Assembly (NCBI GenBank): GCA_964384605.1 | Contig: CAYLMO010000010.1 | Span: 1 to 24,684 of the forward strand | Length of the DNA: 24,684 nt | Reading direction: 5' to 3' | Source of the DNA: an uncultured Bradymonadales bacterium | Lineage (GTDB): Bacteria; Myxococcota_A; Bradymonadia; Bradymonadales; Bradymonadaceae | In this document: one piece after another, positions 4,769-24,684 of the stretch | Position numbering within the stretch: the first letter of the stretch is position 1 | Layout of the letters: the number at the start of each line of letters is the position of its first letter | Position numbers and translations under genes: made by a program | Notes under the pieces: model-generated | Databases searched by the model: none | What the model was told of the DNA's origin: nothing | The model's input: only the letters and a program-made list of their open reading frames with translations

Positions 4769-4981
4769 CGTTCACCTCGAGGGCTGGACCGGAGGGCTTC
4801 GATATATCACGGGCCGAGCGGCGCGGAAACGAGTCGCGAGGATGGAGTCGTCATGCGTGTGGGAGCCGAGAGTACATTTGTGGACAGAGAGTATACGGCA
4901 ATGTCGCCGCGACACTTTTTCATTCTCGAAAGGTGGCGTAGCGTGAGCGTCAAACATCTGACTGTTACAACGAGGATAGAG

Positions 4982-7900
4982 ATGAACGTGCGTCACGTCG
5001 CATGGCTCGCGCTCTTTGGTTTGGTAGCTACGAGCTGCTCCGAAGAGTTGTCTGGGCCTCAGCCAGCGATCCCCGATCCCGTTGCCGGACAGGCATTGCC
5101 GGTCGATCCGGGACTCATCTGCAACGTCCAGCACCCCGAAGAGGGGACGCCGATTTCGGTCACCGGTGAGGCGCTCGCGCCCGTCGGGTTCGATATCCCG
5201 GGCGACCCGAAGGTGTCGCTGCCCGACATCATGCTCGCTCGGACGAGCGGTCTGACCGGAGGCGAAGCAGCCGAGGCGAGCGTCGAGTTTGGCGGAGAGC
5301 CAGGCGACGCGAATCACAGCTTGCTGACCTGGACCTCGCAACAGGCGATGGAGTTCCGCGTGACCGACGCGCTGGCGATCGAAGCCGGCGTGTACGATTT
5401 GACCGTGACGAACGCCGACGGCTCAGCCGCAACTTCCGCGGCCGCGCTCGCCGTCGTCGACCGCCCCGTGGTCACCTCGGCCTCGCCAGGCCTCGTCTGT
5501 GTGGCACAGGAAGCGCGCGACATCGTCATCGAAGGTACGGACTTCCTGCGCATCGGCGATTCGCTCGCCGCCGTGAACATCGGCGACAGCACGTTCGAGC
5601 CCGCGCTCGATGGCTGCACCGGTATCGCACACCCCGCGATCGACGCTGAAACCTGCACCACCGCGACGATCAACGTGCCGCAAGACGGCCTCGCCGAAGG
5701 CACGTACGACGTCACGATTCAGAACCCCGAGACGGCCGCATGCACCAGCGTTGCAGCCGATGACGCAATCACGCTGCGCGTCGTCGGGCCGCCTCGCATC
5801 GAGGCCGCCGACCCGCCCGCGATCTGCTCGGAATCGGCGTCGATGATGGAGACGATCACCTTCACGGGTGCGAACTTCATCAACGCCGACGGTCAGAACT
5901 TCGTGGTCACCGTGAACGGTCAGGAAGTCACGCCCGACTCGGTCGATGGATGCGAAGCGGTCGAGGGAGCTGGCTTCGAAGCTGAGATCTGCACCTCGTT
6001 CACCGTCACGGTCGACCTCACCGGTCAGGCTATCGGCGGCATCGAAGTTACGGTCACCAACCCCGACGTCGTCGGCTGCAATACCTCCACCACGGAGGTC
6101 TTCGAGATCGTCGGGCCGCCTACCGTCACTGGCGTACAGCCGTCCGAAATCTGCTCGGACCGCGCTGAAACCGTCACGCTCACCGGCACCGGCTTCGGCC
6201 AGAACGCGACCGTCATGTTCGGCAGCGAGATGGCCGACATGGTCGAGTACGTCAGCTCCACCGAGCTCACGGTCACCTTCACCGATGGCCTTCCTGCGGG
6301 CACCTACGACATCACCGTCGACAACGGCGGCGGATGTGTAGCGACCCTCATGGCCGGCATCATCGTGAACCCCACGCCAATCACGTTCTTTGTCGACCCA
6401 CGCGTGGTCTACAACGGCATCACGATCGAGGTGACCATCTTCACCTCGGGTCTCGACGCCATGGCGCAGAGTGTCGACCTCATCGACGATATGGGGAACG
6501 TCACGAACATCTCGGCGTTCAACTCGCCGACGCGTCCGAACCGAATCCTCGCGACGATCCCAGCGGGCCTCGACCCGGGCGAATACGAAGTGCAGGTGAC
6601 GTCGTCGGACGGCTGTGAATCGCTCATCAACGGGCGTCTCACCATCACCGACAACCTCACGCTCAACCTCGCGAGCATTACGCCGAGCTTCGTCTCGCCG
6701 ACGGTCGATACCGCCGTGACGATGGAAGCGGCCGACCCGAACAGCTTCGTGAGTACGCCGCGCGCGTACCTCAACCCGAACCCTGCAGGCGCAGGTGTGA
6801 CGGCGAGCCCGATTCGTGCGGTGGTTCAGGCCGATGGCGACACGCTCACGGGCGTGATTCCGGGTGGCCTCACTCCGGGCAGCTACGACCTCATCATCGT
6901 CAACCCAACCGGCGAAGTGGGACTGCTCGAGAGCGCGCTCACCGTGACGCCGAACGAGCCGCCGGTCATCACCTCGGTGACGCCGGCGACCCTCGCGAAC
7001 AACACCGACTATCCGGTGACGATCGCGGGTGAGAACTTCGACGCTGCGGGCGTCACCGTGGAGCTCACCTGCGAGGCGCCGGACGGCACGCAGACCGACT
7101 ACTCGGCGACGGTTCAGGGTGTCACCGCGGACAGCGCGGATGCGCTGCTGCCCACGAGCCAGCTCTCCAAAGGGACAGTGTGCGTGGTCAAGATCACCAA
7201 CGATGCCGAAGGTTCGTCCTTCGTGTTCTCGGCGATCTCCATCACGAACTCGTCGTTCAACCTCGAGCCCTGGCAGGCGACGACTGCGATGAACACGCCT
7301 CGACGTGCACTCGCGCTCGAAGCCGGTCGCCCGACGCAGACGAGCCGCGCGCTCTACGCGGTCGGTGGCGACGACGGAACCGCGGCGAACACCTACGACA
7401 CCATCGAGTACTCGCCGGTCAGCATCTTCGGCGACCTCGGCGCATGGGTCGACCAGTCCTACACACTTCCGGCTCCGCGAGCCTTCGCGGGTAAGACACG
7501 CATCGGGCGATTCCTCTACTTGATTGGCGGCACCGACGGGACCGCTGCGCAAGACACCGCGTGGCGCGCGCAGATTCTCGATCCGCTCGATACCCCGAGC
7601 GTGGTCGACGTCGATGCGACCCTCGGAGACGGCACCAATGGCGTGGGCGAAGGCGTGTGGATCTACCGCGTCGCCGCCGTCTACCCCATGACCGACGCCT
7701 CGAACCCTGGCGGCGAGAGCCTTCCGGGAGACCCACAGGTCATCGAGCTGCCACAGGTCGACGAAGGCATCGTGCTCACGATCAAGTGGGACGCTGACCC
7801 TCGCGCTTCGGCCTACCGAGTCTACCGCTCGCCTGCGGCCGACGACTCGATCGACAACCTCCAGCTGCTCGCTGAGGTTGCCGCGCCCGATACGCAGTAC

Positions 7901-8668
7901 ACCGACGACGGCACCGGAATGACCGACGCCTCCGTCACGCCGCTCCTCGAGGGCGAGACGGGGCAATGGCACTCGGCCGGCACGCTTGGAACTGCACGAG
8001 AGGGTCTGACGGCTGTCTCGGCGCCAATCCCGGGCACCACCGACCAGTGGGCGATCTACGCAGCTGGTGGTCGCGACGCGACCGGCACGTACCTGAACTC
8101 CATCGAGTACGCGGTCGTCACGGTCGCCGCCGATGGCTCACAGACTGTCTCGGCATGGACCACGGCTCCTGACGTGCTGGCAGCCGCGAAAGCCGACATC
8201 GGCTCGTGGCGGGTGCGTAACTCCGACACGTCGGCCGTCCCGGTCGGTTCGACCTGGATCTACTTCGGTCCGGGCAACGGAGAGACCGCGATCGTAGACG
8301 ACCTCGAAGCATTCGAGGTCACCGCTACCGGCGCTCCTGGTTCGTTCCAGTCGGTGAACCGTTCGCTCTCGGGCGACCGCGCCGGCTACGGGTACGGAGC
8401 CTCGAACGGCTACCTCTACATCTTCGGCGGTCAGGGTGGTGACGCCAGCGACGGAGCAGTTTCGGCCGTCATGTGCGACAGCCCATCGCCTCAGTGCGAC
8501 GACATCCCGCCGGACCTGCAGTCCGGAGCATGGAACAGCGTGAGTATCGCGACGTCTGAACCACGGCTCTACCCAAGCGTGGCGCAAGAAAGCGCCTTCT
8601 ACTTCGTCGGCGGCGGTTCCACTACGGGTGGCGCTGCGACGAGTTCTGTCGACACCACTGTGCAGTGA
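4982..8668 (+). CDS. large surface lipoprotein (1228 aa) with repeated IPT/TIG (Ig-like) domains followed by a Kelch-type beta-propeller
   Basis: ATG 4982 is preceded by GAGGA (4972-4976). Lipoprotein signal MNVRHVAWLALFGLVATSC. At least 5 repeats of the IPT/TIG pattern (P.ICS....T.T.TG..F ... GTYD.TV.N). C-terminal Kelch-like blades (YAVGGDDGTAANTYDTIEY, LYLIGGTDGTAA, IYAAGGRDATGTY, LYIFGGQGGDASDG, FYFVGGGSTTGG). The ORF track begins at 4400, but upstream residues carry no signal peptide. Confidence 0.8.
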   Translation: MNVRHVAWLALFGLVATSCSEELSGPQPAIPDPVAGQALPVDPGLICNVQHPEEGTPISVTGEALAPVGFDIPGDPKVSLPDIMLARTSGLTGGEAAEASVEFGGEPGDANHSLLTWTSQQAMEFRVTDALAIEAGVYDLTVTNADGSAATSAAALAVVDRPVVTSASPGLVCVAQEARDIVIEGTDFLRIGDSLAAVNIGDSTFEPALDGCTGIAHPAIDAETCTTATINVPQDGLAEGTYDVTIQNPETAACTSVAADDAITLRVVGPPRIEAADPPAICSESASMMETITFTGANFINADGQNFVVTVNGQEVTPDSVDGCEAVEGAGFEAEICTSFTVTVDLTGQAIGGIEVTVTNPDVVGCNTSTTEVFEIVGPPTVTGVQPSEICSDRAETVTLTGTGFGQNATVMFGSEMADMVEYVSSTELTVTFTDGLPAGTYDITVDNGGGCVATLMAGIIVNPTPITFFVDPRVVYNGITIEVTIFTSGLDAMAQSVDLIDDMGNVTNISAFNSPTRPNRILATIPAGLDPGEYEVQVTSSDGCESLINGRLTITDNLTLNLASITPSFVSPTVDTAVTMEAADPNSFVSTPRAYLNPNPAGAGVTASPIRAVVQADGDTLTGVIPGGLTPGSYDLIIVNPTGEVGLLESALTVTPNEPPVITSVTPATLANNTDYPVTIAGENFDAAGVTVELTCEAPDGTQTDYSATVQGVTADSADALLPTSQLSKGTVCVVKITNDAEGSSFVFSAISITNSSFNLEPWQATTAMNTPRRALALEAGRPTQTSRALYAVGGDDGTAANTYDTIEYSPVSIFGDLGAWVDQSYTLPAPRAFAGKTRIGRFLYLIGGTDGTAAQDTAWRAQILDPLDTPSVVDVDATLGDGTNGVGEGVWIYRVAAVYPMTDASNPGGESLPGDPQVIELPQVDEGIVLTIKWDADPRASAYRVYRSPAADDSIDNLQLLAEVAAPDTQYTDDGTGMTDASVTPLLEGETGQWHSAGTLGTAREGLTAVSAPIPGTTDQWAIYAAGGRDATGTYLNSIEYAVVTVAADGSQTVSAWTTAPDVLAAAKADIGSWRVRNSDTSAVPVGSTWIYFGPGNGETAIVDDLEAFEVTATGAPGSFQSVNRSLSGDRAGYGYGASNGYLYIFGGQGGDASDGAVSAVMCDSPSPQCDDIPPDLQSGAWNSVSIATSEPRLYPSVAQESAFYFVGGGSTTGGAATSSVDTTVQ

Positions 8669-9592: not shown

Positions 9593-10600
9593 ATGTCGCG
9601 TCAACGAAACCTCATCTCAGCACTCATCGTTCTGGCAATCACCGCGCTCGCATCCGACGCGTTTGCCCGCTCGTTCCGCGTCGACCAGACGCCCGGTGCC
9701 GACTTCAGCTGCGACCTCTGTCACCTTCCCGCCGGCGGACTCAACGACTTCGGCTTCGACTCCTTCCAGTTCGTCGACAACGGCAATGTCATCTGGGCCA
9801 ATCTCGCTGCCGTCGACAGCGACGGCGACGGCTACACCAACGGCGAAGAACTCGGTGACCCAACCGGTTCCTGGACCCCCGGCGATCCGATCCCGAGCGG
9901 CCAGACCGACCCGAACAACGCAAACGACACCCTGTGCGGCAACGGCCAGCTCGACGGCGAAGAAGAGTGCGAAGGCACCGAAACCGCCATGACCTGCGGC
10001 GACATCAACGCCGGCGTGGGCGAGCTCTCGTGCAATCCAACGACGTGCACCTTCGACACCAGCGCGTGCGGCGCTTGTGGCGACGGCATCGTCCAGTCAC
10101 CGCGCGAAGAGTGCGACGGCTCCGACCTCGCCGACGCAACCTGCGAGGCGCTCGGCTACTCCGGTGGGACGGTCAGCTGCGCGGCGAACTGCCAGCTCGA
10201 CACGAACGCCTGTGAAGGCGAGCCGGCCGATCCTGGCATGAGCGGTGGCGGTGGAACTCCCGCGCCGGGTACCGGCACCGGATTCTGCGGCGACGGACTG
10301 CGCAACGCCGGCGAAGCCTGCGAAGGCGGCGACCTCGGTGGGGCAACCTGCGGGTCGCTCGGCGCTGGCGACGGAATGCTCTTCTGTGACCTCAGCTGCA
10401 ACTACGACTTCTCGTCTTGCAGCGGCGGCAACGGGCTCTCCAAGGCCGACGACGGCGCGAGCGCACTCCCCCGCGACCCGGGCAACGACCTCATCATGGT
10501 CGGTGAAGCCTGCTCCGCATCGGGCGGCTCGACCCCAGACGGCGGACTGCTCGTGATTCTCGTGGGCTTGTTCGGCCTCGGCCTGCGCCGCCGCCGCTGA
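9593..10600 (+). CDS. secreted Cys-rich repeat protein (Myxococcus-type cysteine-rich repeats) with a C-terminal MYXO-CTERM-like sorting signal
   Basis: GGAGG 9583-9587 then ATG 9593. Signal peptide MSRQRNLISALIVLAITALASDAFA. Repeated CG.G..D..EECDG..C.. units. DSDGDGYTNGEE Ca-binding-like loop. C-terminus EACSASGGSTPDGGLLVILVGLFGLGLRRRR (Cys, G/S-rich, hydrophobic helix, Arg tail). CDLCH (CxxCH) follows the signal peptide. Confidence 0.75.
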   Translation: MSRQRNLISALIVLAITALASDAFARSFRVDQTPGADFSCDLCHLPAGGLNDFGFDSFQFVDNGNVIWANLAAVDSDGDGYTNGEELGDPTGSWTPGDPIPSGQTDPNNANDTLCGNGQLDGEEECEGTETAMTCGDINAGVGELSCNPTTCTFDTSACGACGDGIVQSPREECDGSDLADATCEALGYSGGTVSCAANCQLDTNACEGEPADPGMSGGGGTPAPGTGTGFCGDGLRNAGEACEGGDLGGATCGSLGAGDGMLFCDLSCNYDFSSCSGGNGLSKADDGASALPRDPGNDLIMVGEACSASGGSTPDGGLLVILVGLFGLGLRRRR

Positions 10601-12532: not shown

Positions 12533-14376
12533 TCCGCGGCCGCCTCGTTCTCTTGCTGCATCTGCTGCGCGGCGATCTCGGCGTAGTAGCCGTCGCCTTG
12601 GACGAGCTCGTCATGCGTACCGACGGCGGTCACATGGCCGTTCTCGAGCACTACGATTTGGTCGCAACCCTGAACCGCTCGGACCCGGTGCGACACCACG
12701 ATCCCGGTACAGCCGTCGAGGACGTCTCGCAGGCTGTCGAGGATCGCCTCTTCGGTCTTCGAGTCGACCGCGCTCAGGCAGTCGTCCAACACGAGCACCT
12801 TCGGTTTCGCCCCGATTGCGCGGGCGATGGCGAGTCGTTGCCGCTGGCCTCCCGACAGGTTCACGCCGCGCTCACCGAGCATGGTCTCGTAGCCGTCGGA
12901 GAAGGTCTCGACCTCTGCATGAAGCTGTGCGGTCTTCGCGAGCGACACGACCTCGTCGCGGCTCAGTTGGTTGCCCATCGAGATGTTCCGTTCGAGCGTG
13001 GTGCTGAAGAGGAACGTCTCCTGCGGGCCAACGACAATCTGCTCACGCAGCGAGTCGAGCTTCAGGCTGCGCACGTCTACATCGTCGAGGAAGATCGTGC
13101 CTTCGGGCGGGTCGTAAAGGCGCGCCAGCAGCGAGACCAGCGTCGACTTGCCGCACCCGACCGGACCAAACAGCCCGAGCGTCGAGCCCGCCGGGACCTC
13201 GATCGAGACATCGTGCAGCGCTTCGATAGGCCCGTCGTCGTGTTCCACCTCGACGCCGTCTTCCTCGACGACACGCGGTCCCGAGTACGAGAATGAGAGT
13301 CCGCGAATCGAGATGGCGCCTGGGCCGACCGCGACCTTCGCGTCGTCGGCATCCGTGATCGTCACGTCCTCCGAGAGCAATCGGTCGATTCGGCCGAGCG
13401 AAGCGCGTCCGCGCTGGAACAGTGAAATCGCCCACCCAAGCCCGATCATTGGGCCCGTCAGGTAGCCGATCAGGAACAGGAACGCGACGAACGTTCCGGT
13501 CGAAATCTCCCCCTTCACGACCTGGATTCCGCCGAAGATGACGATCAGCGCCTTAGACAATCCGAGCATGAAATCGAGCGTCGGATCGAACAACGCATGC
13601 ACTCGGGCGAGCCACATATTCTTGCCGAAGTGGCGCCACGAGTAGTCGCGAAAGCGCTCCCGGTCGAACGATTCACGCGCGTACCCCTGGATGATTCGCA
13701 TGCCTGCGTAGCTCTCGCGAACCCGTTCGGTCATGTCGCTCAGGTCTTCCTGGACCTGCTCGTGCCCGGTGTACTCCAGGTGGCTGAGCTTGTTCGTCAC
13801 CATGTAAATCAGCGGCAGCGGAATCAACGCGTAGAGCGTCAGCTCCCACGACAAGAGTCCCATGATCACGAGCACCATCGACACGATCAGCACCGTGTCG
13901 CTCCCGACGAGGACTCCCGGACCCAACATCATCCGCACGGCGCTCACGTCGCTCGTCGCACGCGACATCAAATCTCCCGACTTCGACCGGTCGTAGAACG
14001 ATTGCGTTTGGTTGAGCAGTGCGCCCGCAATGGCGCGCCGAATGGTCTGCCCGATTCGGTGCGACGGAATCGCGACGCGCGTGACCATCGGGTACCGCGA
14101 CAGGTTCGCGACGAGCGCCAGCGCCAGATACACCAGCACTGTCCCGAGCAGGGTAAAGCTACCCGCACTCAACCCGATCAACGCGAGCGGGCGAGGCATC
14201 TCCACGGCGCCGCCGAGGACCTCCGACTCCACGATCTCCACGGCGAGCGCGAGAAAGAGTGGCGAGATCGTTTCCATCAGGTTGACCGTGAACAAGGCGG
14301 TCAACCCGACGAAATACGCCCACTTCTCGGCTCGGACGAGCTCGAAGAATCGTCTTATGAACTGTGCGATTGGCAC
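12529..14376 (-). CDS. ABC transporter permease/ATP-binding fusion protein, likely heterodimer partner of the downstream gene
   Basis: 615 aa. GTG start at 14374-14376. TM domain then GPVGCGKST (Walker A), LSGGQRQRLAIARAI (signature), VLVLDDCLSAVD (Walker B), SHRV (H-loop). Overlaps the downstream ABC gene by 4 nt. Confidence 0.9.
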   Translation of the reverse strand: MPIAQFIRRFFELVRAEKWAYFVGLTALFTVNLMETISPLFLALAVEIVESEVLGGAVEMPRPLALIGLSAGSFTLLGTVLVYLALALVANLSRYPMVTRVAIPSHRIGQTIRRAIAGALLNQTQSFYDRSKSGDLMSRATSDVSAVRMMLGPGVLVGSDTVLIVSMVLVIMGLLSWELTLYALIPLPLIYMVTNKLSHLEYTGHEQVQEDLSDMTERVRESYAGMRIIQGYARESFDRERFRDYSWRHFGKNMWLARVHALFDPTLDFMLGLSKALIVIFGGIQVVKGEISTGTFVAFLFLIGYLTGPMIGLGWAISLFQRGRASLGRIDRLLSEDVTITDADDAKVAVGPGAISIRGLSFSYSGPRVVEEDGVEVEHDDGPIEALHDVSIEVPAGSTLGLFGPVGCGKSTLVSLLARLYDPPEGTIFLDDVDVRSLKLDSLREQIVVGPQETFLFSTTLERNISMGNQLSRDEVVSLAKTAQLHAEVETFSDGYETMLGERGVNLSGGQRQRLAIARAIGAKPKVLVLDDCLSAVDSKTEEAILDSLRDVLDGCTGIVVSHRVRAVQGCDQIVVLENGHVTAVGTHDELVQGDGYYAEIAAQQMQQENEAAAE

Positions 14377-14468: not shown

Positions 14469-16370
14469 TCAATCGTCGAGCGGATCGGTCCCGAGGATTC
14501 GGCGCAATCGACCGCGCGTATCTTCGTTCGAGTCTTTCTGCGCCTGGTCGAGCGAGTAGGACTTCGAGAGTACCTGCACGGTGCCCCGAGGCGAGGCCGC
14601 GAATTCCGCGCGCAGCTTCTCGAGTTCCATCAGGAACGAACGCGGTTGATCCGAAACCGCGGCGGCGCGCTCGAGCACTTCCTGGGCTGCGAGGAAATTG
14701 CCGCGACGCCGGAACTGCCCTGACAGTTCGAGCACCCGATCGACCTCGTCGTCCGAGAACGCCAGGCTCGGCGAGCTCAGGTTCGAGCTCGCTTCGCTCA
14801 AGTCGCGCCGCTCGGTCTTCACCGCGTCGTCGATGCGCACGACCCCGTGGTCAGCGAGCGAGAACACGGCCTCCTCGATATCGAACGGTAGTCCCGACGC
14901 TCGCGTACGGAGCTCCGAAATCGAGATTGGCTGTTCAGCGAGCGACAGCACGAAGTTTTGCCCCTGCGTCCAATCTCGCCCCGGCAAAGGGCCGGTTCGC
15001 GCGATGGTCGCTCCGTTTCCGATCGACCGCCGCACACCGTGCTTGTCGAGGAAGTACTCCAGCGCCGCGTGGCACGTGGGGCTGAGCTCCACGCCGAATC
15101 CCGTCGGATGTTGGTGGCAGTGCGATACGACTCGCCCCTCGAGCTTCAACTCGGCGTCCGCCGGTTCGTACACCACCCGTATCGCAACGATGTCGTTCTG
15201 GTCCGGAAAATCGCCGTCGGCGGTGACGAACAACCCTCGCGCGATCAGGTTTCGGCGATACTCTCGCCGCATCCGTTCGGCGGTCCCGAAGACCATTCGC
15301 CAGCATGGCACAGAGTCGATCGGGCGTTCGATGACGAGCGACGGAGACCGCGAGACTCTCGAAGTGACGGGCGCGGTTTTGCTCGACCGGAAGCTCTCTT
15401 CGTACGCCACGGAGTCGAGCGAATCGCCCACGGGCACGAATGTCGTTTCGGCAGCCGCATCGCGGAAGGCGGCGACGAACGACTCCACGTCGGGCCAGCG
15501 GTTCTTGCGCGAAACTTCGATCGCCCGCATGACCGTCGCGCTGGTGGCCTCGTTTACTTCGGAATTCAGTTCGTACAGCGGTCGCGGTGTGCGGCGTGCG
15601 CGGACCTCCGAATAGGCGTCGGCCCAACCTTCCGTGACCCAGGGCACGCGGCCGCTCAACATCTCGTAGACCACACATCCGAGCGCGAACACGTCCGCCC
15701 GCGGGTCGATGTCTTCACCGTCTGCGTGCTCCGGCGACATGTAGCGCGGAGTACCAAAGACGGACCCAGATTCGACGGTATTGTTGATGATCGAGGCCGT
15801 GCCGAAGTCGAGCACCTTCCAAACATGCCGATTGCCCGGCCGGCGCGCGTGCATGATGTTGGCCGGCTTCAAGTCGAGGTGCACAATCCCGAGCGCATGC
15901 ACCGAAGAGAGCGCGCTTCCTACCGCCACCAGACAGTCGAGCGTCTCGCGCAGCGACAACATTCTTCGGCGAACGAGGATATCGGTGAGTCGATCACCTT
16001 CGAGCAGCTCCATCGTCAGGAAGTACCCGTGCGCGGCGCAATGGCCGAAGTCGGTCACGAACACGATGTTGTCGTGACCGATCAGGCTCGTCGCCTTGGC
16101 CTCCTCCTGGAATCTGCGAATGAACTTCGGGTCGTGCGCAATCTCCGGGTGCAGAATCTTCAGCGCGAAGCGATGTCCCAGGTGCACGTGCCGCACCTCG
16201 TAAACCCTCCCGAACCCGCCTCGACCAATCTCGCCGGTGACCCGGTAGCGATTGTCGATCACCTGACCGATCGCCGATTGGAACCTCGGGATGGCGTGCT
16301 CGAGCTCGTCGAGCGCACGTTCGATCTCCGAATCGCTCGCGGCGAGGTTTTCGTTCATGCCGTCGTTCAT
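14469..16370 (-). CDS. serine/threonine protein kinase (Hanks-type) with a long C-terminal regulatory region
   Basis: Kinase motifs GEIGRGGFGRVY, ALKIL, HLDLKPANI, DFG, GTPRYMSPE. The ORF track starts at a TTG (16382). The first ATG is 16368-16370 (MNDGM...), with an alternative ATG at 16358. No strong SD is present. The C-terminal ~300 aa have an RREYRR...ADGDF stretch only weakly PilZ-like. Confidence 0.8.
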   Translation of the reverse strand: MNDGMNENLAASDSEIERALDELEHAIPRFQSAIGQVIDNRYRVTGEIGRGGFGRVYEVRHVHLGHRFALKILHPEIAHDPKFIRRFQEEAKATSLIGHDNIVFVTDFGHCAAHGYFLTMELLEGDRLTDILVRRRMLSLRETLDCLVAVGSALSSVHALGIVHLDLKPANIMHARRPGNRHVWKVLDFGTASIINNTVESGSVFGTPRYMSPEHADGEDIDPRADVFALGCVVYEMLSGRVPWVTEGWADAYSEVRARRTPRPLYELNSEVNEATSATVMRAIEVSRKNRWPDVESFVAAFRDAAAETTFVPVGDSLDSVAYEESFRSSKTAPVTSRVSRSPSLVIERPIDSVPCWRMVFGTAERMRREYRRNLIARGLFVTADGDFPDQNDIVAIRVVYEPADAELKLEGRVVSHCHQHPTGFGVELSPTCHAALEYFLDKHGVRRSIGNGATIARTGPLPGRDWTQGQNFVLSLAEQPISISELRTRASGLPFDIEEAVFSLADHGVVRIDDAVKTERRDLSEASSNLSSPSLAFSDDEVDRVLELSGQFRRRGNFLAAQEVLERAAAVSDQPRSFLMELEKLRAEFAASPRGTVQVLSKSYSLDQAQKDSNEDTRGRLRRILGTDPLDD

Positions 16371-16426
16371 GATAGGTGACAAAGTGAATCGGAGGGCCGG
16401 TGCACGGCCTCCAAATGGAGTTTCTT

Positions 16427-17433: not shown

Positions 17434-17652
17434 CTACTCCTCCCTCGAGAGCGGCTTCTCTTGGTGGGTCAGCATCGCGGCCGCAAGCCGCTTCGCGTCC
17501 ACCTCGTACTCCCCAGCTTCGACCGCATCCCGCAGCTCGTCGCAGCTCAGCTCGGCCTCGGAGTTCTCGACGATCTCCGACAGCTCCGCTAGCTCCGACG
17601 CTGATACCGTCGTCGCAGCACTGTTTTTCGATTTCGAAGAGTCCCGGCTCAC
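17434..17652 (-). CDS. FlgM-family anti-sigma factor-like small protein (72 aa)
   Basis: GTG start 17650-17652 preceded by GAGG (spacing 6). Ser/Thr-rich disordered N-terminus. C-terminus ELRDAVEAGEYEVDAKRLAAAML matches the conserved FlgM C-terminal helix pattern (..I..G.Y.VD..KIA..ML). Confidence 0.5.
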   Translation of the reverse strand: MSRDSSKSKNSAATTVSASELAELSEIVENSEAELSCDELRDAVEAGEYEVDAKRLAAAMLTHQEKPLSREE

Positions 17653-17682
17653 GCGAACCTCATGTCGAAGCGTTCACGCGAG

Positions 17683-17710
17683 ACATCGGCACGAATTCGC
17701 TCGGCCTTAA
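17683..17710 (-). promoter_or_regulatory. sigma-28/FliA-like promoter candidate (TTAAGGCC-N12-GCCGATGT) upstream of the FlgM-like gene
   Basis: Minus-strand reading gives TTAAGGCC gagcgaattcgt GCCGATGT, close to the class-3 flagellar promoter consensus TAAAGTTT-N11-GCCGATAA. It lies ~30 nt upstream of the GTG start. Confidence 0.3.
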
Positions 17711-17737
17711 GCTCTTGAAGATGGAGAGGTGCCCGAC

Positions 17738-18097
17738 TTAGGCGGTGTAGACCACGCCCTGGGCGTCGAGCCAGTCCTGCGCCTTGGCGCGCACCGACTC
17801 CGAAAAGTAGGCCGCGAAATCGTCGCTCAGATCGGCGCCACGAACCTGGGCGCAAAGCACCTCGATCGTTTCGCCCTCGGCTCGAATCCCATGAGCCTCC
17901 AAAAACTCTCTCAGGAGTTCCTCGCGGCGGATTGGGGCTTTGGGAAGCTCCACAAAGTCGCGAGCCGGTCGATGCTCCGGAATGCCCTCCACCACCATCG
18001 CTCTCGGAAGGTCGAGATAATGGGGGCCGGACAACTCGGCATCTTGCTCGAAGTACTCCAACAATTCGCGAACCAGCGGATTTCGGGGGCGACTCAT
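17738..18097 (-). CDS. hypothetical protein (~119 aa)
   Basis: ATG 18095-18097 (MSRPRNPLVRELLEYFEQD...) preceded by purine-rich AGAGAGAAG. The ORF track's longer N-terminal extension (from 18187) is Arg-rich and runs into a low-GC intergenic region. Confidence 0.4.
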   Translation of the reverse strand: MSRPRNPLVRELLEYFEQDAELSGPHYLDLPRAMVVEGIPEHRPARDFVELPKAPIRREELLREFLEAHGIRAEGETIEVLCAQVRGADLSDDFAAYFSESVRAKAQDWLDAQGVVYTA

Positions 18098-18282
18098 ACT
18101 ACTTCTCTCTAAACGACGAGCGGACGCACTCGTAAAGATGCGTCTAGTATCGAAAGGTTGCGCGCCAATCCGGAATACCTGCAGCACAAGTATTTCAGCG
18201 CACTTCGTTCGATGTTAGGCAACCCGCAAGAATTCCATTATCCTCGCGTCGACGCCGACGGATTCGTCACAAGGGCTACGGC

Positions 18283-19827
18283 ATGCGCGAATCACAGCCG
18301 ACACCCAAGCTCGCTCGCTGGAGCGGCGAGAGCTTCGGGGAACTAGTGCTTGGCGGGGAGCTTGGATCGGGTCCGAATGGATCCACCTACTCAACAACGT
18401 CTCCTGAAGGCGATGGGAGGCCCTATGTCGTCAAGATCGTGGAGCGCCACACGGTTGACGAAGACAATCGGATGCGCCGCTACCGCACGGATGTCGACAT
18501 CCTTCGAGAGGCCGACATCACCGGAATCCTAGAGCCCGGCGCCTTCCGAACCCTCGACAATTCGCACCTCGCCGCCATCATGGAGCGAACGGACCTGCTC
18601 AGCCTGCGGGCGTTCCGAGGTAAGTTGCCACCGCATCGCTTCATCGATGTGTTGCGGCGAATCGCGATCGTCGTCGGCGACGGCCACAACGTCGGCTGCT
18701 TCCATGGACACCTGCACGAATCGAACATCTTCATCGACCCGGTCGAAGCCCCTCCAACGATCGAAGTCAGTGGCTTTGCGCTACATCACTTGATCAACGA
18801 CGAAGTCCTGTCGCCCGGTCAGCTACTCCACGACGACATCTTCGCCCTCGGACTCATCGCGTTCCGCGAAGTCTCGGGGCGGGAGTACCGCGGCCCCGAC
18901 GACCTCCAGCACCTCATCCGCGAATCGGGCAACTTCCCCGTCCGCTTCTGCCAGGCCGTCGAACGTTGGCTCGACCCGAACCCGGCCAAACGACCGCAGA
19001 AGATGCACCAGGTCATCGGCTTGCTCGAGTACGCGCTCGCCTCCACCGACCCCGCGCAGACGTTCCCGGTGGGCGTTGCCAAAGGCCCCGCGCCGGCGGC
19101 CGCGATCATACGACCGCCCAAGACTGGCATCTCCGAGGTCTCCGAAGCGCTCGAAGACAAATCGCCCGACAACACACAGAAGGTCCAAAGCTGGCGAAGC
19201 TGCGGCGGCAAGATGCTCTGGCTCGACGACCAGGGCGTGCTGCGCCGCCGCGATTCGAAAGGAAACGACACGATCGTCGACGCCGGTGGACTCGAGGTGA
19301 ACGCCTTCGCGATTTCGCACGACGCGATCGCGTTCGTGGTCCCCGGAGGTGAGGTTCACCTCATCGAAGATTCAGGAATCCGGCGAGTCTCCCAGCTCGG
19401 GCGCGACGCGCTCGCCGTCGCTCCGTCTGCCCGGCTTCGGCGAATCGTTGCCGCGACCGTGGACGGTCGGGTCTGGTTCAAGCCCGCAGACCAGCCGCGG
19501 CCACTTCCAGTCGGTTTTCTCAATCCCGACGACGGCATCGATCTCATGTTGGTCGGCGAGCGACTCCTCGTTCGCCACGGCGAAACCGCATGGCTCGCCG
19601 ACCCGGAAAGCCCAGACGACATCGACATCGTCTTCGAGAACACCACCCGAATCGACGGCGGGTTCGACCCTCGAACATTCGTCGTCTGGTCAGGCCGCCG
19701 CTGGTCGCTCTACGACATCGACGGCAACCTCCTCGAAACCGGCCGCACCGCTCAAGGGCCCCGTCCGGGACGTATGGACGGTCCGACCTACTCGACCTAT
19801 CGAGACCTTTCGAGCGTCAGTAGCTAG
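18283..19827 (+). CDS. pseudokinase: degenerate Hanks-type kinase domain fused to a C-terminal beta-propeller-like repeat region
   Basis: AAGGG then ATG 18283. Gly-loop-like GELGSGPNGSTY and VVKIV lysine motif are retained. The catalytic loop is HGHLHESNIFID (HRD Asp replaced) and the DFG position reads SGF. C-terminal repeats look like beta-propeller blades (VDGRVWFKP, VVWSGRRWSLYDIDGNLL). Confidence 0.65.
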   Translation: MRESQPTPKLARWSGESFGELVLGGELGSGPNGSTYSTTSPEGDGRPYVVKIVERHTVDEDNRMRRYRTDVDILREADITGILEPGAFRTLDNSHLAAIMERTDLLSLRAFRGKLPPHRFIDVLRRIAIVVGDGHNVGCFHGHLHESNIFIDPVEAPPTIEVSGFALHHLINDEVLSPGQLLHDDIFALGLIAFREVSGREYRGPDDLQHLIRESGNFPVRFCQAVERWLDPNPAKRPQKMHQVIGLLEYALASTDPAQTFPVGVAKGPAPAAAIIRPPKTGISEVSEALEDKSPDNTQKVQSWRSCGGKMLWLDDQGVLRRRDSKGNDTIVDAGGLEVNAFAISHDAIAFVVPGGEVHLIEDSGIRRVSQLGRDALAVAPSARLRRIVAATVDGRVWFKPADQPRPLPVGFLNPDDGIDLMLVGERLLVRHGETAWLADPESPDDIDIVFENTTRIDGGFDPRTFVVWSGRRWSLYDIDGNLLETGRTAQGPRPGRMDGPTYSTYRDLSSVSS

Positions 19828-19914
19828 GCGGCCTCGAGCAATTTCGACATCAATTAGATCCAAACTCGAGACAGGTCGTTAGAATGATCGACAACGAACC
19901 TGCGGAGCCTTCCC

Positions 19915-20805
19915 ATGTCTGAATCGAATCGAGCCAACGTCGCCCTCTCCATCACCATCGCCGCGGTAGCTCTCCTCGCGGGCTACGTCGTGTTTGCCGC
20001 GATGGGTGACAAATCGACCACCTCAACGAAACCGCCCATCGTCGACTCGCAGAACAAGGTCCTCGATGTCGTCTTCGTCATCGACGCGACCGCGTCCATG
20101 TCCGACGAGATCGAGCAGGTGAAGGCGGAGGTCGTGTCTGTCGCCGACCAGCTCTCGGGCGAGAATCCGGGCGCGAAGATCCGCTTCGGACTCGTGCTCT
20201 ACAAAGACACCACCGACGACTTCGTGACTCGAGTCACGCCGCTCAGCTTCGACACCCAAAAGGTTCGCGGCCTGCTCGAACAGATTACGGTGAGCGGCGG
20301 TGGCGATTACCCTGAGCATGTCGGTGCGGGCCTGCACGAAGCCATCGCGTTCGATTGGGCACCCGATGCCGAACGCGTCATCTACCTCGTCGGCGACGCA
20401 CCCAGCCAAGACCACGGCGACGGCAAGACCGTGTCGACCGCGCTCCAGCTGGCCAAATCGAACGGCATCGTCGTCCGCACCCTGGGCTGCAGTGGTATCG
20501 AGCGTGATGGCGCCGCGGGTCGAAACGAGTTCCAGATGATCGCGCAGATGACCGGTGGCACGTACCGCGACCTCACCTATCACGCGGTCGTGGTCGGCGA
20601 TGACGGCCGAAAGCGTTCGGTCATCTACGAGGGCGGCGAAGCGTACGAGGCCGACCGGGTGCTCGACGCTGAAGAATGGTCGGCCGGTAGTGGCGCGCTT
20701 CGCGAGAAAGGGATGGTCAAGCCGGCCGCTGCGCCGACGCGGGCCAAGGCCGACCGCGCCGAGAAGAAGAGCAACGTCATCGAAGTCATCAAGGGCGACT
20801 TCTAA
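19915..20805 (+). CDS. membrane-anchored von Willebrand factor type A (vWA) domain protein
   Basis: GGAG 19904-19907 then ATG 19915. N-terminal TM helix LSITIAAVALLAGYVVFAAM. MIDAS motif VVFVIDATASMSD (DxTxS) with downstream ..GGGDYPE.. and LVGDAP, typical of vWA folds. Confidence 0.8.
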   Translation: MSESNRANVALSITIAAVALLAGYVVFAAMGDKSTTSTKPPIVDSQNKVLDVVFVIDATASMSDEIEQVKAEVVSVADQLSGENPGAKIRFGLVLYKDTTDDFVTRVTPLSFDTQKVRGLLEQITVSGGGDYPEHVGAGLHEAIAFDWAPDAERVIYLVGDAPSQDHGDGKTVSTALQLAKSNGIVVRTLGCSGIERDGAAGRNEFQMIAQMTGGTYRDLTYHAVVVGDDGRKRSVIYEGGEAYEADRVLDAEEWSAGSGALREKGMVKPAAAPTRAKADRAEKKSNVIEVIKGDF

Positions 20806-20823
20806 GCCACCGGTTCGAGGCGG

Positions 20824-22740
20824 TCAGCCGCGTTTCATCTGCCGTTGCAGGTCGATCACGGTGACGCCGCCCGAGCCGTCATGGCGCACGGCCATCAGCT
20901 GATTCTGGCTGCTGAAACCGAGCGCGTGCACTCCCGAGGGCGGCTCATTTCCACGCATGAACACGTTCGGTTGCACTGCCGATTCGATTCGGACCTCTTT
21001 GTCGGTCAAGAGTGCCACAAGGTAGCCGTCGCTCGAGAAAGCGACGGCTCGAACGTCTGGATCTTTCACGGTTCGAACGGCGGTCCGGGGCGTTGCGAAG
21101 TCGTAGACCGAGCAGCTCTTCCCTCGCCGCGCCATCGCGAATCGGGACCCATGCGCGTCGACCGCAAACGTCACGATCGGGCCGTCACCCGACTCGACCG
21201 CGAACCGACTCCAGTCACGATTGTCATCGCCGGTCCACAGGTATGCGCGTCCGTTGACGGTTCCCGCGACGGCCACGTTGCCCGCGTCCGACACCGCGAG
21301 CACGGTGATCGCGGAGCGCCGGACGTCTTCGTAGACGAGCGTTGGTTCCTGGTCGCGCTCGACTCGAAAGATTCGGCCGCCAGCCGTACCGATCAGAACG
21401 AACCTGTCGCAGACGGCCAGGGCGGTGACTTCGCTTGGGAGGTCCAGTTTGCGCTTGGATTTCACGCCGCTGGACAGTTCGACCAAGGCGAGTTGATGAC
21501 GTCCATCGATGTACGCGACCCACTCTTCGGAGACCGCGGTGATGAGTGAGCCTTCGAGGTGCTGCGTCACGTGCACGCGGCTCGAGTCGTCACGGTGCAA
21601 TCGCGGCGCCGGCGGCTGCTCGCCCGTTTCGGTGAAGGCGCGACCATGCAGCGTGCCGCCAGTATCTTCACCGGGGGCCGAATCCTCCATGACGACGCTC
21701 GAAACGTGCGACAGCGTCGCCTCCGAGAGGCTGTCGAGGAGCGAGATCACGTCTGACAACTGGTCCGGACGGTCTTCCGGCCGCTTCTCGAGAAGGTTCT
21801 TCAGCAAGTTCTCGAGCTCATCCGGGAACGACTCCCCGGTGACTTCGCGCAGCGACGGGGCCGGTGTCGTAACGTGATCGTCGAGGATGCGCAGCACGTT
21901 GTCGTGCACGAACGGCGGGCGGCCCGTCAGCATCTGGAAGAGTACGGCTCCAACGCTGTAGATGTCGCTGCGTTGGTCGACTTCCTTCCCCTGGGCCTGT
22001 TCGGGAGACGCGTAGAGTGGTGTGCCGATGAAGCCTCGGGTCATCTTGACGGCGCCGCGCGCCGACACGATTCCGAAGTCCAATACGTGCACGAAGTCAT
22101 CGCCGGCTGGCAGCTCCTCGACGATGATGTTGTCGGGCTTGATGTCCCGGTGCACGAGCCCTGCGCGGTGCGCTTCGAACACACCGTTCGCGATCTGCCG
22201 CGTGATCTGAATCGTTCGCCGAATAGGCAGTCGGCCGTACTGTTCCACCAGCTCGTCGAGCCGAGTGCCCTCGATGAAGTCCATGACGAACGCCATCTCG
22301 CCGGACGGCAACGAGATCACGTCGTAGAACGACACCACGTGCGGGTTACGCATGCTGCTGAGTGCCTGAACCTCACGTTCCACGCGGGCTTTCGTCTGCT
22401 CACGACGCGCGGGATCAGCGTCCATGTGGACGACCTTCATCGCGAACGAACGCGGAATCGCCATCGAATCGGCGCGATACACGGCTGAGAAAGACCCATC
22501 GCCAACGTGCCGTGTCAGTACGTAGCGATTCGAAATCGTCTTTCCGAGCCAGCGATCGGCAAAGTCCTCCAGCGGAAACCAACCGTCGGCCGGGCGCTTC
22601 TCGCCGCAGTAGAAGCAGTCGTCGTCCTCGGCGAAGGCAACCGCGGTGCAGATACCGCACGCGAAGCTGATCTCGCCGCGAATCTGTTCGCGGCGAGCCT
22701 GCTCACGCTTGTGGCGCGATGCCCGTTCCGATGTGGACAT
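20824..22740 (-). CDS. serine/threonine protein kinase with an N-terminal C4 zinc-ribbon and a C-terminal WD40-like repeat region
   Basis: ATG 22738-22740 (MSTSE..) preceded by AGGGA. An in-frame ATG at 22755 has no SD. CGICTAVAFAEDDDCFYCG zinc ribbon. Kinase motifs AMKVV, HRDIKPDNI, DFG, GTPLYASPE. C-terminal ~300 aa have WD40-like repeats (VAGTVNGRAYLWT, VAFSSDGYLVALL). Confidence 0.85.
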   Translation of the reverse strand: MSTSERASRHKREQARREQIRGEISFACGICTAVAFAEDDDCFYCGEKRPADGWFPLEDFADRWLGKTISNRYVLTRHVGDGSFSAVYRADSMAIPRSFAMKVVHMDADPARREQTKARVEREVQALSSMRNPHVVSFYDVISLPSGEMAFVMDFIEGTRLDELVEQYGRLPIRRTIQITRQIANGVFEAHRAGLVHRDIKPDNIIVEELPAGDDFVHVLDFGIVSARGAVKMTRGFIGTPLYASPEQAQGKEVDQRSDIYSVGAVLFQMLTGRPPFVHDNVLRILDDHVTTPAPSLREVTGESFPDELENLLKNLLEKRPEDRPDQLSDVISLLDSLSEATLSHVSSVVMEDSAPGEDTGGTLHGRAFTETGEQPPAPRLHRDDSSRVHVTQHLEGSLITAVSEEWVAYIDGRHQLALVELSSGVKSKRKLDLPSEVTALAVCDRFVLIGTAGGRIFRVERDQEPTLVYEDVRRSAITVLAVSDAGNVAVAGTVNGRAYLWTGDDNRDWSRFAVESGDGPIVTFAVDAHGSRFAMARRGKSCSVYDFATPRTAVRTVKDPDVRAVAFSSDGYLVALLTDKEVRIESAVQPNVFMRGNEPPSGVHALGFSSQNQLMAVRHDGSGGVTVIDLQRQMKRG

Positions 22741-22867
22741 TAGGGTCCCTGACATTCATGGAGTCAATTCTTTGACGGCAATGTACAGCGGATTTGACCA
22801 GCCGAGCAACGCCGCGTGTGCCATTTTGTATACGAATGGAATACGGCCCAACCTCGCTGGAACGCAC

Positions 22868-22904
22868 AAAAAAAGGCGCCGCCCCGATTTCTCGGAGCGG
22901 CGCG
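22868..22904 (-). terminator. rho-independent terminator of the slipin gene
   Basis: Minus-strand RNA reads GCGCCGCuccgagaaaucgggGCGGCGCC followed by UUUUUUU (plus-strand A7 at 22868-22874). It starts 14 nt after the slipin stop codon. Confidence 0.75.
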
Positions 22905-22917
22905 TTAACGCGGCGCG

Positions 22918-23991
22918 TCAGGTGTCTCGCAGAAGCCGAAGAGCACCTTCGGTGGCCACGACTTTGACCTCGCCCACGGAGCTGGCGAGCTCTTTCAGAG
23001 TCTCGAGCTCTTTGAGGCGCATGAGCGTCGGGTTCGACTCGAGCATCTTGGCCGTGTTGGCCATGCTTCGGGTCGAAGCCGTCTCTTCGCGACGCGTGAT
23101 GACGTTGGCCTCAGCTTCTTTCTGAGCCTCGATCACCCGGTTCATGAGGGCCTTCATGTCGCCCGGAAGGACCACGTCTTTGAGGTCCACCGTTCGGACC
23201 GAAAGGCCCCATTCGCCCACGACTTTCCGAACTTCCTCGGTCGTCGTGTTCGAACCCTGGTTGCGCCGCTCGAGGAGCGACTCGACCGTCTCACCGGCCA
23301 CCCATCGGCGGACAGCGAGCTGGACTTCCGAGTAGAGGCCGTTCTCGTACGAGTCGACCGTCGACACGGCTGTCTCCGGGTTCGTGACTCGGTATCGCAC
23401 CAGCACGTTCACACGCACCGACACTTTGTCCGAGGTCATGACCTCTTGGCCGACGACCTGGAGCTCACGTTCACGCATGTCGACGACGTCCACTCGTACC
23501 GAGCGCTCGTACTCCGAGACCATGTATCGACCCGGTTGGAGCTCGCGCACCAGCTCGCCGTTCACCCAGAGGAGGCCTCGAAGGTGCGGACCGATCAGGT
23601 GCGAGTAGCCGTACTTCCGGTCGAGCATGCGCCAGAACGGCTTCGGCAGGCTCAGAACGTCTTCATTGAGGTCGAAGAGTTCGGCGGTCACGCGCTTGCG
23701 CACCTGCCACAGGACCCATCGGCCAACGCCGAGGACCTCGTGAGCGACACCGTCGACTCGGACACAAGCGACGCGACCCTCAGGGACCTCGAGCAGGACG
23801 CCCTCCGAAGCGGGGAGCATCTCTTCGAGTTCTGGCGTGAGTTTCGTCGAGGCGCACGAGACGTCGAACGAGATCGTTTCGTAGTCCGCGAAGATCGACC
23901 AAAGCGTGTGATGGCCGGGGCCGAGCCACTTGTAGGGCTGGCCGTTTCGCAGAACGAGAACGCGTTCGGTTCGTTTGATTTCGAGATACAT
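22918..23991 (-). CDS. SPFH/Band 7 (slipin/stomatin-like) family protein with an N-terminal extension
   Basis: GGAGGTGA then ATG 23989-23991. Core VDMRERELQVVGQEVMTSDKVSVRVNVLVRYRV..AV..V.. matches the SPFH beta-sheet region. C-terminal coiled-coil/Ala-rich region VIEAQKEAEANVITRREETA is typical of slipins. Confidence 0.75.
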   Translation of the reverse strand: MYLEIKRTERVLVLRNGQPYKWLGPGHHTLWSIFADYETISFDVSCASTKLTPELEEMLPASEGVLLEVPEGRVACVRVDGVAHEVLGVGRWVLWQVRKRVTAELFDLNEDVLSLPKPFWRMLDRKYGYSHLIGPHLRGLLWVNGELVRELQPGRYMVSEYERSVRVDVVDMRERELQVVGQEVMTSDKVSVRVNVLVRYRVTNPETAVSTVDSYENGLYSEVQLAVRRWVAGETVESLLERRNQGSNTTTEEVRKVVGEWGLSVRTVDLKDVVLPGDMKALMNRVIEAQKEAEANVITRREETASTRSMANTAKMLESNPTLMRLKELETLKELASSVGEVKVVATEGALRLLRDT

Positions 23992-24311
23992 GATTCACCT
24001 CCTCGTCGCGCCACGCGACGGGTGCTGCATTGAAAAAAACTCGGAACCGGCCAACCCACCTTGTCAGCGAGATCTGCGGGGGCGCTGCGGCCGGGAGACG
24101 TGTCGACTTCTCACGTCACTCGAAGGCACAACCGCGCGTGTGCTCCCCCCAAGGCGCACACGGCACGGCGCAATGCCCACAGGGCATCTCTCGCCTGGAC
24201 TCGCCTCGGCACCGTTGGTGCTTTGGTTCGTCCGGGTGGGCCAACCGGCCCCTCTTAGGTCACCGTAATGAGTGGTGGTCTCATCCGATTTTGTTCGGAC
24301 GAAGTTTACCG

Positions 24312-24354
24312 ACGGATTGACAGTCCGTTGCCTTTACCATTTGGCTACATTCCC
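24312..24354 (-). tRNA. 5' two-thirds of tRNA-Asp(GTC): acceptor GGGAATG, U8, D-arm, anticodon stem ACGGA / loop CUGUCAA / UCCGU. It lies 6 nt downstream of the 3' fragment, so the gene order is permuted.
   Basis: Minus strand gggaatg-ta-gcc-aaatggtaaa-ggc-a-acgga-ctgtcaa-tccgt. Perfect 5-bp anticodon stem, U33, GUC, A37. The acceptor 5' strand GGGAATG pairs with CATTTCC of the upstream 3' fragment (6 Watson-Crick pairs plus G3.U70). No T-arm follows it. Confidence 0.55.
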
Positions 24355-24360
24355 AATGCT

Positions 24361-24388
24361 TGGTGGAAATGATGGGATTCGAACCCAC
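24361..24388 (-). tRNA. 3' third of a tRNA (T-stem GTGGG, T-loop TTCGAAT, T-stem CCCAT, acceptor 3' strand CATTTCC, discriminator A, CCA), not preceded by an anticodon arm
   Basis: Plus-strand tggtggaaatgatgggattcgaacccac is the reverse complement of a canonical T-arm-acceptor-CCA. The 68 nt upstream on the minus strand contain GGAAGTG (24450-24456), which could pair with the acceptor. No anticodon or D stem was found in any 5-bp/7-nt-loop register. Confidence 0.55.
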
Positions 24389-24640
24389 ATTGGTGACGGC
24401 CGAGGCGATACGTGGGACACACGCTCCAGACTAGACGGGGATTGTGCGCCACTTCCTTACCGGCCGACTTCTCCTATCGCGAGACCCGTGCCAACTTTTG
24501 CGAGGGTGTCGCAAGTTGTTGAAAATAATGGGTTTTGCTGGCTGTCGGGTGGCGTGTCTCACGACGCTTCTGTATCGGATGAGATAGCTTCTATCGGCCG
24601 CGATAAGAATCCTTTTCGCCATTCAGGCACCAAACGCCGA

Positions 24641-24684
24641 ACGAGCATCCAGCAACCAGTAACGAGCAACCAGTAACGAGCAAC
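24641..24684. repeat. 14-bp tandem repeat (cagtaacgagcaac) with 2 perfect copies and a degenerate leading copy, cut off by the window end
   Basis: 24657-24670 and 24671-24684 are identical. 24641-24656 is a diverged copy (aacgagcatccagcaac). The unit length is not a multiple of 3. Confidence 0.6.

Follow-up and report, generated by a model that had tools for sequence, protein, structure and literature searches.

A stretch of 24,684 nucleotides of contig CAYLMO010000010.1 (assembly GCA_964384605.1; positions 1 to 24,684, forward strand; the whole stretch is here termed the window) from an uncultured Bradymonadales bacterium encodes a group of signaling-type genes centered on a Hanks-type Ser/Thr kinase, predicted to be active and cytoplasmic, and a neighboring pseudokinase. 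Judged from their sequences, there is about an even chance that these two proteins form a clade-specific, vertically inherited signaling pair in which the pseudokinase would serve as the noncatalytic partner of the kinase. The locus as a whole is best read as vertically inherited signaling hardware in a kinase-rich genome of a Bradymonadia/Myxococcota-like clade and not as a mobile defense island. An earlier description made without database searches (the sequence-only reading) had presented this region as a tRNA-proximal cluster of a pseudokinase, a membrane-anchored von Willebrand factor A (vWA) protein, a zinc-ribbon Ser/Thr kinase, and a slipin. Its four open reading frames (ORFs) and their domain calls are borne out by the ORF positions and by Pfam, and the 87-nt spacing it gave between the pseudokinase and vWA genes is exact (19828-19914). 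The coordinates of all features are collected in Table 1.

A zinc-ribbon kinase, predicted to be active, with a C-terminal propeller

The kinase, whose start is placed at 22740 by gene callers, matches the Pfam Pkinase family (PF00069) with 156.1 bits, far over the cutoff (31.7). Its catalytic set is complete, with K107, H202-R203-D204, K206, N209, D226-F227-G228, and P251-E252 invariant or nearly so across 38 homologues. The CxxC...CxxC zinc ribbon is conserved among the homologues, the pre-kinase motif D67-x-W69-x-G71 is near-invariant throughout the family, and the protein has no transmembrane segment. An AlphaFold2 model with a predicted local distance difference test (pLDDT) score of 81.6 comprises a helix, the zinc ribbon, the kinase domain, and, after a disordered linker (350-401), a propeller of 24 strands (residues 402-640, pLDDT of ~90). 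When this model was compared with known structures by Foldseek, the top matches were PknB (the best), Stk1, and PknA, with target-normalized template modeling scores of 0.8-0.89. Pfam propeller and WD40 matches in the protein itself are all below the cutoff; its homologues carry many of them and bear WD40 names at NCBI, where those of Lujinxingia, Persicimonas, and Microvenator are called [quoted passage not shown] The kinase belongs to this large WD40-kinase family, which has named members from Bradymonadaceae and the three genera just mentioned. Full-length homologues at 34-40% identity are held by cultured Bradymonadia, and an N-terminal zinc ribbon is present in the orthologue group of the window's kinase. 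The catalytic residues, the CxxC pairs, and the modeled propeller agree with the active zinc-ribbon kinase and WD40-like C terminus of the sequence-only reading.

A conserved, predicted pseudokinase

The Pkinase score of the neighboring protein, 24.8 bits (E value of 1.7e-5), does not reach the Pfam cutoff of 31.7; two of its homologues have precomputed Pkinase matches. In this protein HGHLHESN stands in place of HRDLKPxN and SGF in place of DFG; both catalytic aspartates and the zinc ribbon are lost. The glycine loop and the VAIK lysine (K51) are kept, and nucleotide binding may therefore be possible. Like the kinase, the protein has no transmembrane segment. The replacements are constant over three aligned homologues, and a fourth, in the L094 locus, has HGHLNESN and SGF. 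Relatives that are 57-68% identical show HGHL(H/N)ESN and (S/G)GF at the corresponding positions, and HGH replaces HRD in all homologues. As the altered motifs are kept over this range of identity, they are indicative of a conserved pseudokinase and not of a decaying gene, and by sequence comparison both the dead motifs and the C-terminal domain appear to be under purifying selection. With the HRD and DFG replacements conserved in all homologues, the earlier prediction of a catalytically dead kinase seems well founded. The family is tiny: a word-indexed search of 5.8 billion proteins returned the window protein and two relatives, and a third relative, that of L094, surfaced beside a kinase orthologue.

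Probable remote kinship of pseudokinase and kinase

The two proteins are collinear, each consisting of a pre-kinase W-x-G, a kinase or kinase-like domain, a linker, and a propeller or propeller-like domain. By BLASTP, the pseudokinase aligns with the neighboring kinase at 23% identity (E value of 8e-7, 279 columns); the kinase domains only are aligned, and the alignment takes in the pre-kinase "RW-G" stretch (W-x-G) found in both proteins. For the C terminus of the pseudokinase, Pfam returned no match and a profile search of the PDB with this domain gave nothing. A profile of the domain searched against 1.84 billion representative proteins recovered its own family together with weak matches (E values of 1.6e-8 to 1e-3), which are the C termini of two active kinases and two WD40 propeller proteins. 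When the domain was aligned by hhalign with a 38-sequence profile of the kinase propeller, a collinear match of 182 columns was obtained (pseudokinase 303-488 and kinase 405-614) with a probability of 76.6%, an E value of 2.1e-5, and a score of 39.8, compared with scores of 9.7-19.7 for 30 column shuffles and 12.2 for the reversed profile.

Taken at the level of sequence profiles, these results give moderate support to remote homology of the two C-terminal domains, and the pseudokinase looks like an ancient, degenerate, and strongly diverged relative of the WD40-kinase family minus the zinc ribbon. Comparison of the two proteins for shared ancestry points to remote homology both by BLASTP and by hhalign, and the earlier idea of an active/decoy pair sharing an architecture is supported by the collinearity, by the remote homology of the C-terminal domains, and by the adjacency of the two genes in four lineages described below.

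Conservation of the gene neighborhood

The pair was found in four lineages, namely, that of the window, L006 (including L002), L003, and L094. The window and L006 share the order ABC transporter, ABC transporter, kinase-2, M20 peptidase, small ORF, pseudokinase (+), vWA (+), kinase (-), and ABC-F, and L002, a short contig of the L006 lineage, shows small ORF (-), pseudokinase (+), and vWA (+). In L003 the order is kinase (+), vWA (-), and pseudokinase (+), with the pseudokinase flipped in place, and in L094 it is ABC-F (-), kinase (+), and pseudokinase (-), with a gap of 29 nt between pseudokinase and kinase and without an intervening vWA gene. Three arrangements are seen, and each of the four lineages has the pseudokinase and kinase genes as neighbors. 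The flanking genes (ABC exporters, M20 peptidase, ABC-F, and HtpG) are syntenic and 74-89% identical, which points to relatives that are fairly close and share a backbone of core synteny. For the genes of the cluster, the identities are 38-72%. The signaling genes are fast-evolving, and at least three rearrangements have taken place at the locus without parting the pseudokinase from the kinase. Distant homologues of the kinase (Microvenator, 34%; P0066, 38%) have neither partner near and lie among unrelated neighbors. Conservation of the neighborhood thus holds in 4/4 lineages for the pair and in 3/4 for the vWA gene, and the slipin gene is found in the window only.

The vWA protein

The vWA protein is recognized by the Pfam models VWA_4 (68.8 bits; cutoff of 27) and VWA (51.3 bits; cutoff of 23.8). 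The residues D57, T59, S61, and D161 of its metal ion-dependent adhesion site (MIDAS) are invariant and T111 is nearly so. In the aligned family, most N termini resemble cleavable Sec signal peptides, and the clade of the window has a longer, uncleaved anchor. Because family members carry Sec-type signal peptides, the vWA domain is almost certainly extracytoplasmic. The VWA_4 match, the hydrophobic N-terminal anchor, and the intact MIDAS fit the membrane-anchored vWA protein envisaged earlier.

Support for a link between this gene and the pair is weak. It adjoins the pair in three of the four lineages and is probably cotranscribed with the pseudokinase gene in that of the window. Among 80 GTDB loci with vWA relatives, however, a kinase is adjacent at 2 and any kinase lies within 8 kb at 10, and a slipin gene or either of the two C-terminal domains of the kinase and pseudokinase was found at none (0/80). 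The closest relatives in GTDB come from Myxococcota and Bradymonadales metagenome-assembled genomes (MAGs), at no more than 50% identity, and the closer relatives adjoin TMEM43, CCA-adding enzyme, and Mla genes, among others. A general vWA-kinase co-occurrence was accordingly rejected: over the 80 GTDB loci, it is not conserved beyond the window's clade and one Bradymonadales MAG. In the latter (CAZRLK010000016.1; L012/L021 5911-12366), a vWA relative with 45% identity is flanked by three active-looking kinases, which are not orthologues of the window's kinases and indicate an independent vWA-between-kinases arrangement. Since the vWA protein is exported, whereas both kinases lack transmembrane segments, it could be coupled to the cytoplasmic pair only indirectly, if at all. 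The data hint at a link between the vWA protein and the pair that is clade-specific and mechanistically indirect.

A separate insertion with the slipin gene

The gene between the kinase and ABC-F encodes an SPFH protein with a Band_7 match of 101.2 bits against a cutoff of 23.6, which over 96% of its length shares ~31% identity with entries named "slipin family protein." The SPFH/slipin call stands; a place in the cluster is not supported. The gene is absent from both of the relatives whose sequence covers this site: from L006, where the gap between kinase and ABC-F is 410 bp (12714-13123), and from L094, where it is 277 bp (9724-10000), and a strong terminator of its own (22876-22903) separates it from the kinase gene. 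The insertion of ~1.9 kb between the kinase gene and ABC-F (window 22756-24690) holds a tRNA-like element, the slipin gene, and the terminator, all on the minus strand. Flanking repeats, whether of the target-site or the inverted type, were not found, nothing in the nucleotide sequence resembled the empty sites of L006 and L094, and there was no integrase. The slipin gene, the terminator, and the tRNA-like element are a separate, lineage-specific insertion outside the conserved module. In a classic slipin operon, a membrane anchor is combined with an adjacent gene for an NfeD partner. The slipin of the window differs on both counts: its sequence has no hydrophobic or transmembrane segment, it lies between the kinase gene and the tRNA-like element, and none of the called genes gave an NfeD match.

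A circularly permuted tRNA-like element

The description of the cluster as tRNA-proximal is not borne out. ARAGORN finds no canonical tRNA, even with relaxed settings, and what is present is a circularly permuted tRNA-like element. Rfam gives a marginal tRNA match of 59 nt (30.4 bits; cutoff of 29) that corresponds to the 5' two-thirds of this element. On the minus strand, 24388-24361 provides the T-arm followed by the 3' acceptor strand with A73 and CCA; after a spacer of 6 nt, 24354-24312 provides the 5' acceptor strand, the D-arm, and the anticodon arm with GUC. When the two halves are reordered in silico, ARAGORN calls a canonical tRNA-Asp(GTC); the native order is not called. The acceptor stem is paired at 7/7 positions and includes G3:U70 and A73, which we take to be alanine identity elements. 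A unit of 146 nt folds with -46.2 kcal/mol (z = -3.1) into a closed cloverleaf; its terminal helix closes a junction at which the T-arm, the loop-closed acceptor stem, the D-arm, the anticodon arm, and an extra hairpin meet.

Among known RNAs, the YrlA Y RNAs are bacterial "permuted tRNA-like" RNAs (bioRxiv 10.1101/312249) with the same order of T-arm, loop-closed acceptor stem, and D-arm. The element is nevertheless below the Rfam cutoffs both for YrlA (16.2 bits against 69, covering the T-arm, acceptor, and D-arm only) and for permuted transfer-messenger RNA (tmRNA_permuted; 25.1 bits against 47), and its anticodon arm (GUC) is complete and its CCA is encoded. Neither the window nor the ~5 kb of contig available beyond it showed a TROVE/rsr (Ro60) gene, and scans of viral and metagenome sequences for relatives gave only one unrelated phage tRNA-Lys. 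A truncated standard tmRNA and an odd long tRNA were both rejected using the extended contig. The element is absent from L006 and L094. One possibility is that it is what is left of tandem tRNA genes brought by the slipin insertion; another is that it is a Y-RNA-like gene.

Table 1. Features of the kinase/pseudokinase locus and its surroundings, in window coordinates
Feature	Position	Strand	Description
Weak FlgM-like ORF	17434-17652	-	72 aa; FlgM (anti-sigma-28) match of 26 bits, cutoff of 40.75
Small conserved hypothetical gene	17738-18097	-	Called at 119 aa; transcribed away from the pseudokinase gene
Pseudokinase	18283-19827	+	514 aa; degenerate Hanks-type domain (~20-255), linker, predicted all-beta C-terminal domain (~300-490)
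vWA protein	19915-20805	+	296 aa; N-terminal signal anchor, intact MIDAS, conserved C-terminal extension
Ser/Thr kinase, predicted active	20824-22755	-	643 aa; helix, zinc ribbon, PknB-like kinase domain, linker, predicted ~24-strand beta-propeller
Intrinsic terminator-like hairpin	22876-22903	-	12 bp with 10 G-C pairs, then a T-run; directly past the slipin stop codon
SPFH/Band-7 slipin-like protein	22918-23991	-	357 aa; Band_7 match of 101.2 bits
Circularly permuted tRNA-like element	~24255-24400	-	Precedes the slipin gene, in the same orientation

Other features of the window

The window has a G+C content of 62-64%. A Logan contig equals the window sequence exactly (compared over 22000-24684), and the window's proteins are also recorded on an NCBI contig of 112 kb. 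A further ~5 kb of contig on the right-hand side of the window was covered by the analysis. The stop codon of the vWA gene lies 18 nt from the kinase gene on the opposite strand. Left of the pseudokinase, the small hypothetical gene has 37-39% identical homologues at the same position in L002 (1-354) and L006 (7870-8238) and matches nothing in Pfam, NCBIfam, or PADLOC; it is possibly a further partner of the module, with uncertain membership. The weak FlgM-like ORF beyond it has no counterpart in L006 and may not be a genuine gene. A further kinase gene (kinase-2; 14469-16382, minus strand) encodes 637 aa with active motifs, a Pkinase match of 149 bits, and a long C-terminal region without a Pfam match; it is 55% identical to its counterpart at the same position in L006, where the neighboring ABC transporters are ~80% identical. 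The ORF at 4400-8668 (plus strand; 1,422 aa) has one IPT/TIG domain and a Kelch motif, and the bulk of its length is without a family match.

Discussion

The conserved core of the locus would be a two-gene chromosomal pair, made up of an active zinc-ribbon propeller kinase and a derived pseudokinase. By analogy with PknB-type dimers formed through the N-lobe and with the pseudokinase/kinase pairs of eukaryotes, it could be speculated that the pseudokinase acts as an allosteric regulator or scaffold through heterodimerization of the kinase domains; alternatively, it might be a dedicated substrate or decoy for the neighboring kinase. Both propellers would supply protein-binding surfaces, and the exported, membrane-anchored vWA protein would be at most an indirectly linked accessory. 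Bacterial pseudokinases have been predicted in large numbers in kinase-rich phyla, and to our knowledge, very few have an identified active partner. The locus offers a clean test case for whether pseudokinase-kinase allostery operates in bacteria as it does in eukaryotes.

The main alternative, less likely but quite possible, is that there is no functional module at all, and that genes for three kinase-like proteins, a vWA protein, and a slipin lie side by side in a kinase-rich genome in an order that is simply inherited synteny. Several observations lean this way and weigh against a functional pair. The lineages are close, as the 74-89% identity of the flanks and, in particular, the 87-89% identity of ABC-F indicate, and the adjacency could therefore be plain inheritance and not the outcome of selection. 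The pseudokinase and kinase genes are convergent, so that they are not cotranscribed, and a separate terminator serves the slipin gene. Strict, short exact-pattern scans for the pseudokinase motif in GTDB species representatives and in the JGI metagenome collection found none; the patterns were strict and missed at least one JGI member, the pseudokinase of L094 (HGHLNESN), and the co-occurrence of the pair therefore rests on four data points. As for the shared architecture, a first hhalign comparison of the C termini with shallow three-sequence profiles gave a probability of 1.3% and no match, and the positive result depended on a deeper profile and permissive local settings. The AlphaFold2 model of the pseudokinase, built from a three-sequence alignment, has an all-beta C-terminal region, and its pLDDT of 39 makes it unreliable and unusable for a fold search. 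Of the beta-propeller-like C terminus proposed from sequence alone, the weak WD40 profile matches and the later hhalign result speak in favor, and the empty Pfam search and the low pLDDT speak against. Inherited synteny would also accommodate an exported vWA protein next to cytoplasmic kinases, the scarcity of kinases beside vWA relatives (2/80 loci), and the different neighbors of the other kinase homologues. It accounts less readily for a pair that is still adjacent after at least three rearrangements over a short evolutionary distance, for a pseudokinase that is a remote homologue of the very family to which the kinase belongs, which makes a functional paralogue pair plausible, and for the apparent purifying selection on the dead motifs and the C-terminal domain.

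Readings that give the vWA protein a central role are harder to reconcile with the locus. It could be imagined as part of a transmembrane signaling unit of the vWA-STPK-FHA-PP2C type, in which the vWA protein senses a ligand, FHA reads the phosphorylation output, and PP2C resets it. The vWA gene does adjoin a Ser/Thr kinase gene, and a preprint describes such an operon, DRA0331-0334 of Deinococcus radiodurans (bioRxiv 10.64898/2026.01.23.701218), with adjacent vWA and kinase genes in common with the window. We regard this as unlikely, as Pfam gave no FHA or PP2C match for any gene of the window or the ~5 kb to its right, the vWA and kinase genes are convergent and do not form one operon, there is no vWA gene between the pair in L094, and the vWA protein is exported while neither kinase has a transmembrane segment.

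More improbable still is a conflict or anti-phage system with the slipin as membrane effector, akin to the vWA-centered systems of Kaur, Burroughs, Iyer, and Aravind (2020; PMC7159879). The parts named in that source do overlap with those of the window (a zinc-ribbon kinase carrying a beta-rich domain, a standalone vWA, an inactive kinase, and Band-7), and the kinase domains match the PADLOC kinase models PD-T4-6, mad6, and MkoA. In PADLOC-DB 2.0, however, these matches are generic and subthreshold, and the unrelated kinase-2 (14469-16382) scores equally; the vWA, slipin, and small-ORF proteins had no PADLOC match, and MAD6 and PglW scores in NCBIfam fall far below the cutoffs. Among the called genes of the window and the ~5 kb to its right, there was no match for GAP1, GTPase, FNIII, PP2C, FHA, MoxR, or VMAP, and no relatives were found in phage and viral collections. 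The context is nonmobile, syntenic, and of a housekeeping type, and the slipin gene is not conserved. An anti-phage island was accordingly rejected, as PADLOC, NCBIfam, and the plasmid, phage, and viral searches yielded no more than generic kinase matches and the housekeeping synteny is at 74-89% identity. The sequence-only reading had suggested a defense island as one option and had named in advance a core neighborhood syntenic with housekeeping genes, as is found here, as speaking against it. In a related view, for which we see only a small chance, the pair and the exported vWA protein would be a self-contained relative of vWA-centered conflict or surveillance systems without the NTPase, in which the vWA protein detects an external ligand or invader and the dead kinase, as a decoy, switches on the active one. 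If true, this decoy reading would provide a bacterial analogue of integrated-decoy immune signaling, with Bradymonadia as the closest cultured relatives.

Comparison with known systems helps to place the kinase/pseudokinase pair. In the third GAP1-N2 theme, as set out in PMC7159879, a zinc-ribbon kinase with a beta-rich domain is accompanied by PP2C and a standalone vWA; the window has such a kinase and an adjacent standalone vWA gene in common with this theme but is without GAP1, GTPase, FNIII, and PP2C, and its locus is core-syntenic. The same source includes inactive kinases and Band-7 domains among the effectors of the ternary vWA-MoxR-VMAP systems. These two components are shared with the window, which differs in having no MoxR/AAA+ and no VMAP, and in a vWA protein that is exported and carries a signal anchor only, with no fused effector. 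Compared with the DRA0331-0334 operon, the window is without FHA and PP2C, and its vWA and kinase genes are not in one operon. The analysis also disposes of a false lead, in that the combination of vWA, kinase, and SPFH genes is here best not read as a defense island, the slipin gene being part of an insertion that has no relation to the pair. Apart from the kinase/pseudokinase pair, the locus is ordinary, lineage-specific signaling hardware.

The prototype of the WD40-repeat Hanks-type kinases is PkwA of Thermomonospora curvata. The kinase of the window shares with this group the PknB-like domain, the linker, and the C-terminal beta-propeller; its orthologue group adds a zinc ribbon and is alone in adjoining what appears to be a degenerate relative of the same family. 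Pairs of a pseudokinase with a kinase are known from eukaryotes, as in STRAD-LKB1, KSR-RAF, HER3-HER2, and JAK JH2-JH1, and the mycobacterial kinases PknB and PknD are allosterically activated by dimerization through the N-lobe. As in such partner pairs, a predicted dead relative that keeps the ATP-site lysine and probably the kinase fold stands beside a predicted active kinase in the window. The two proteins described here differ in being encoded by separate, convergent bacterial genes and in that each appears to have a propeller-type domain.

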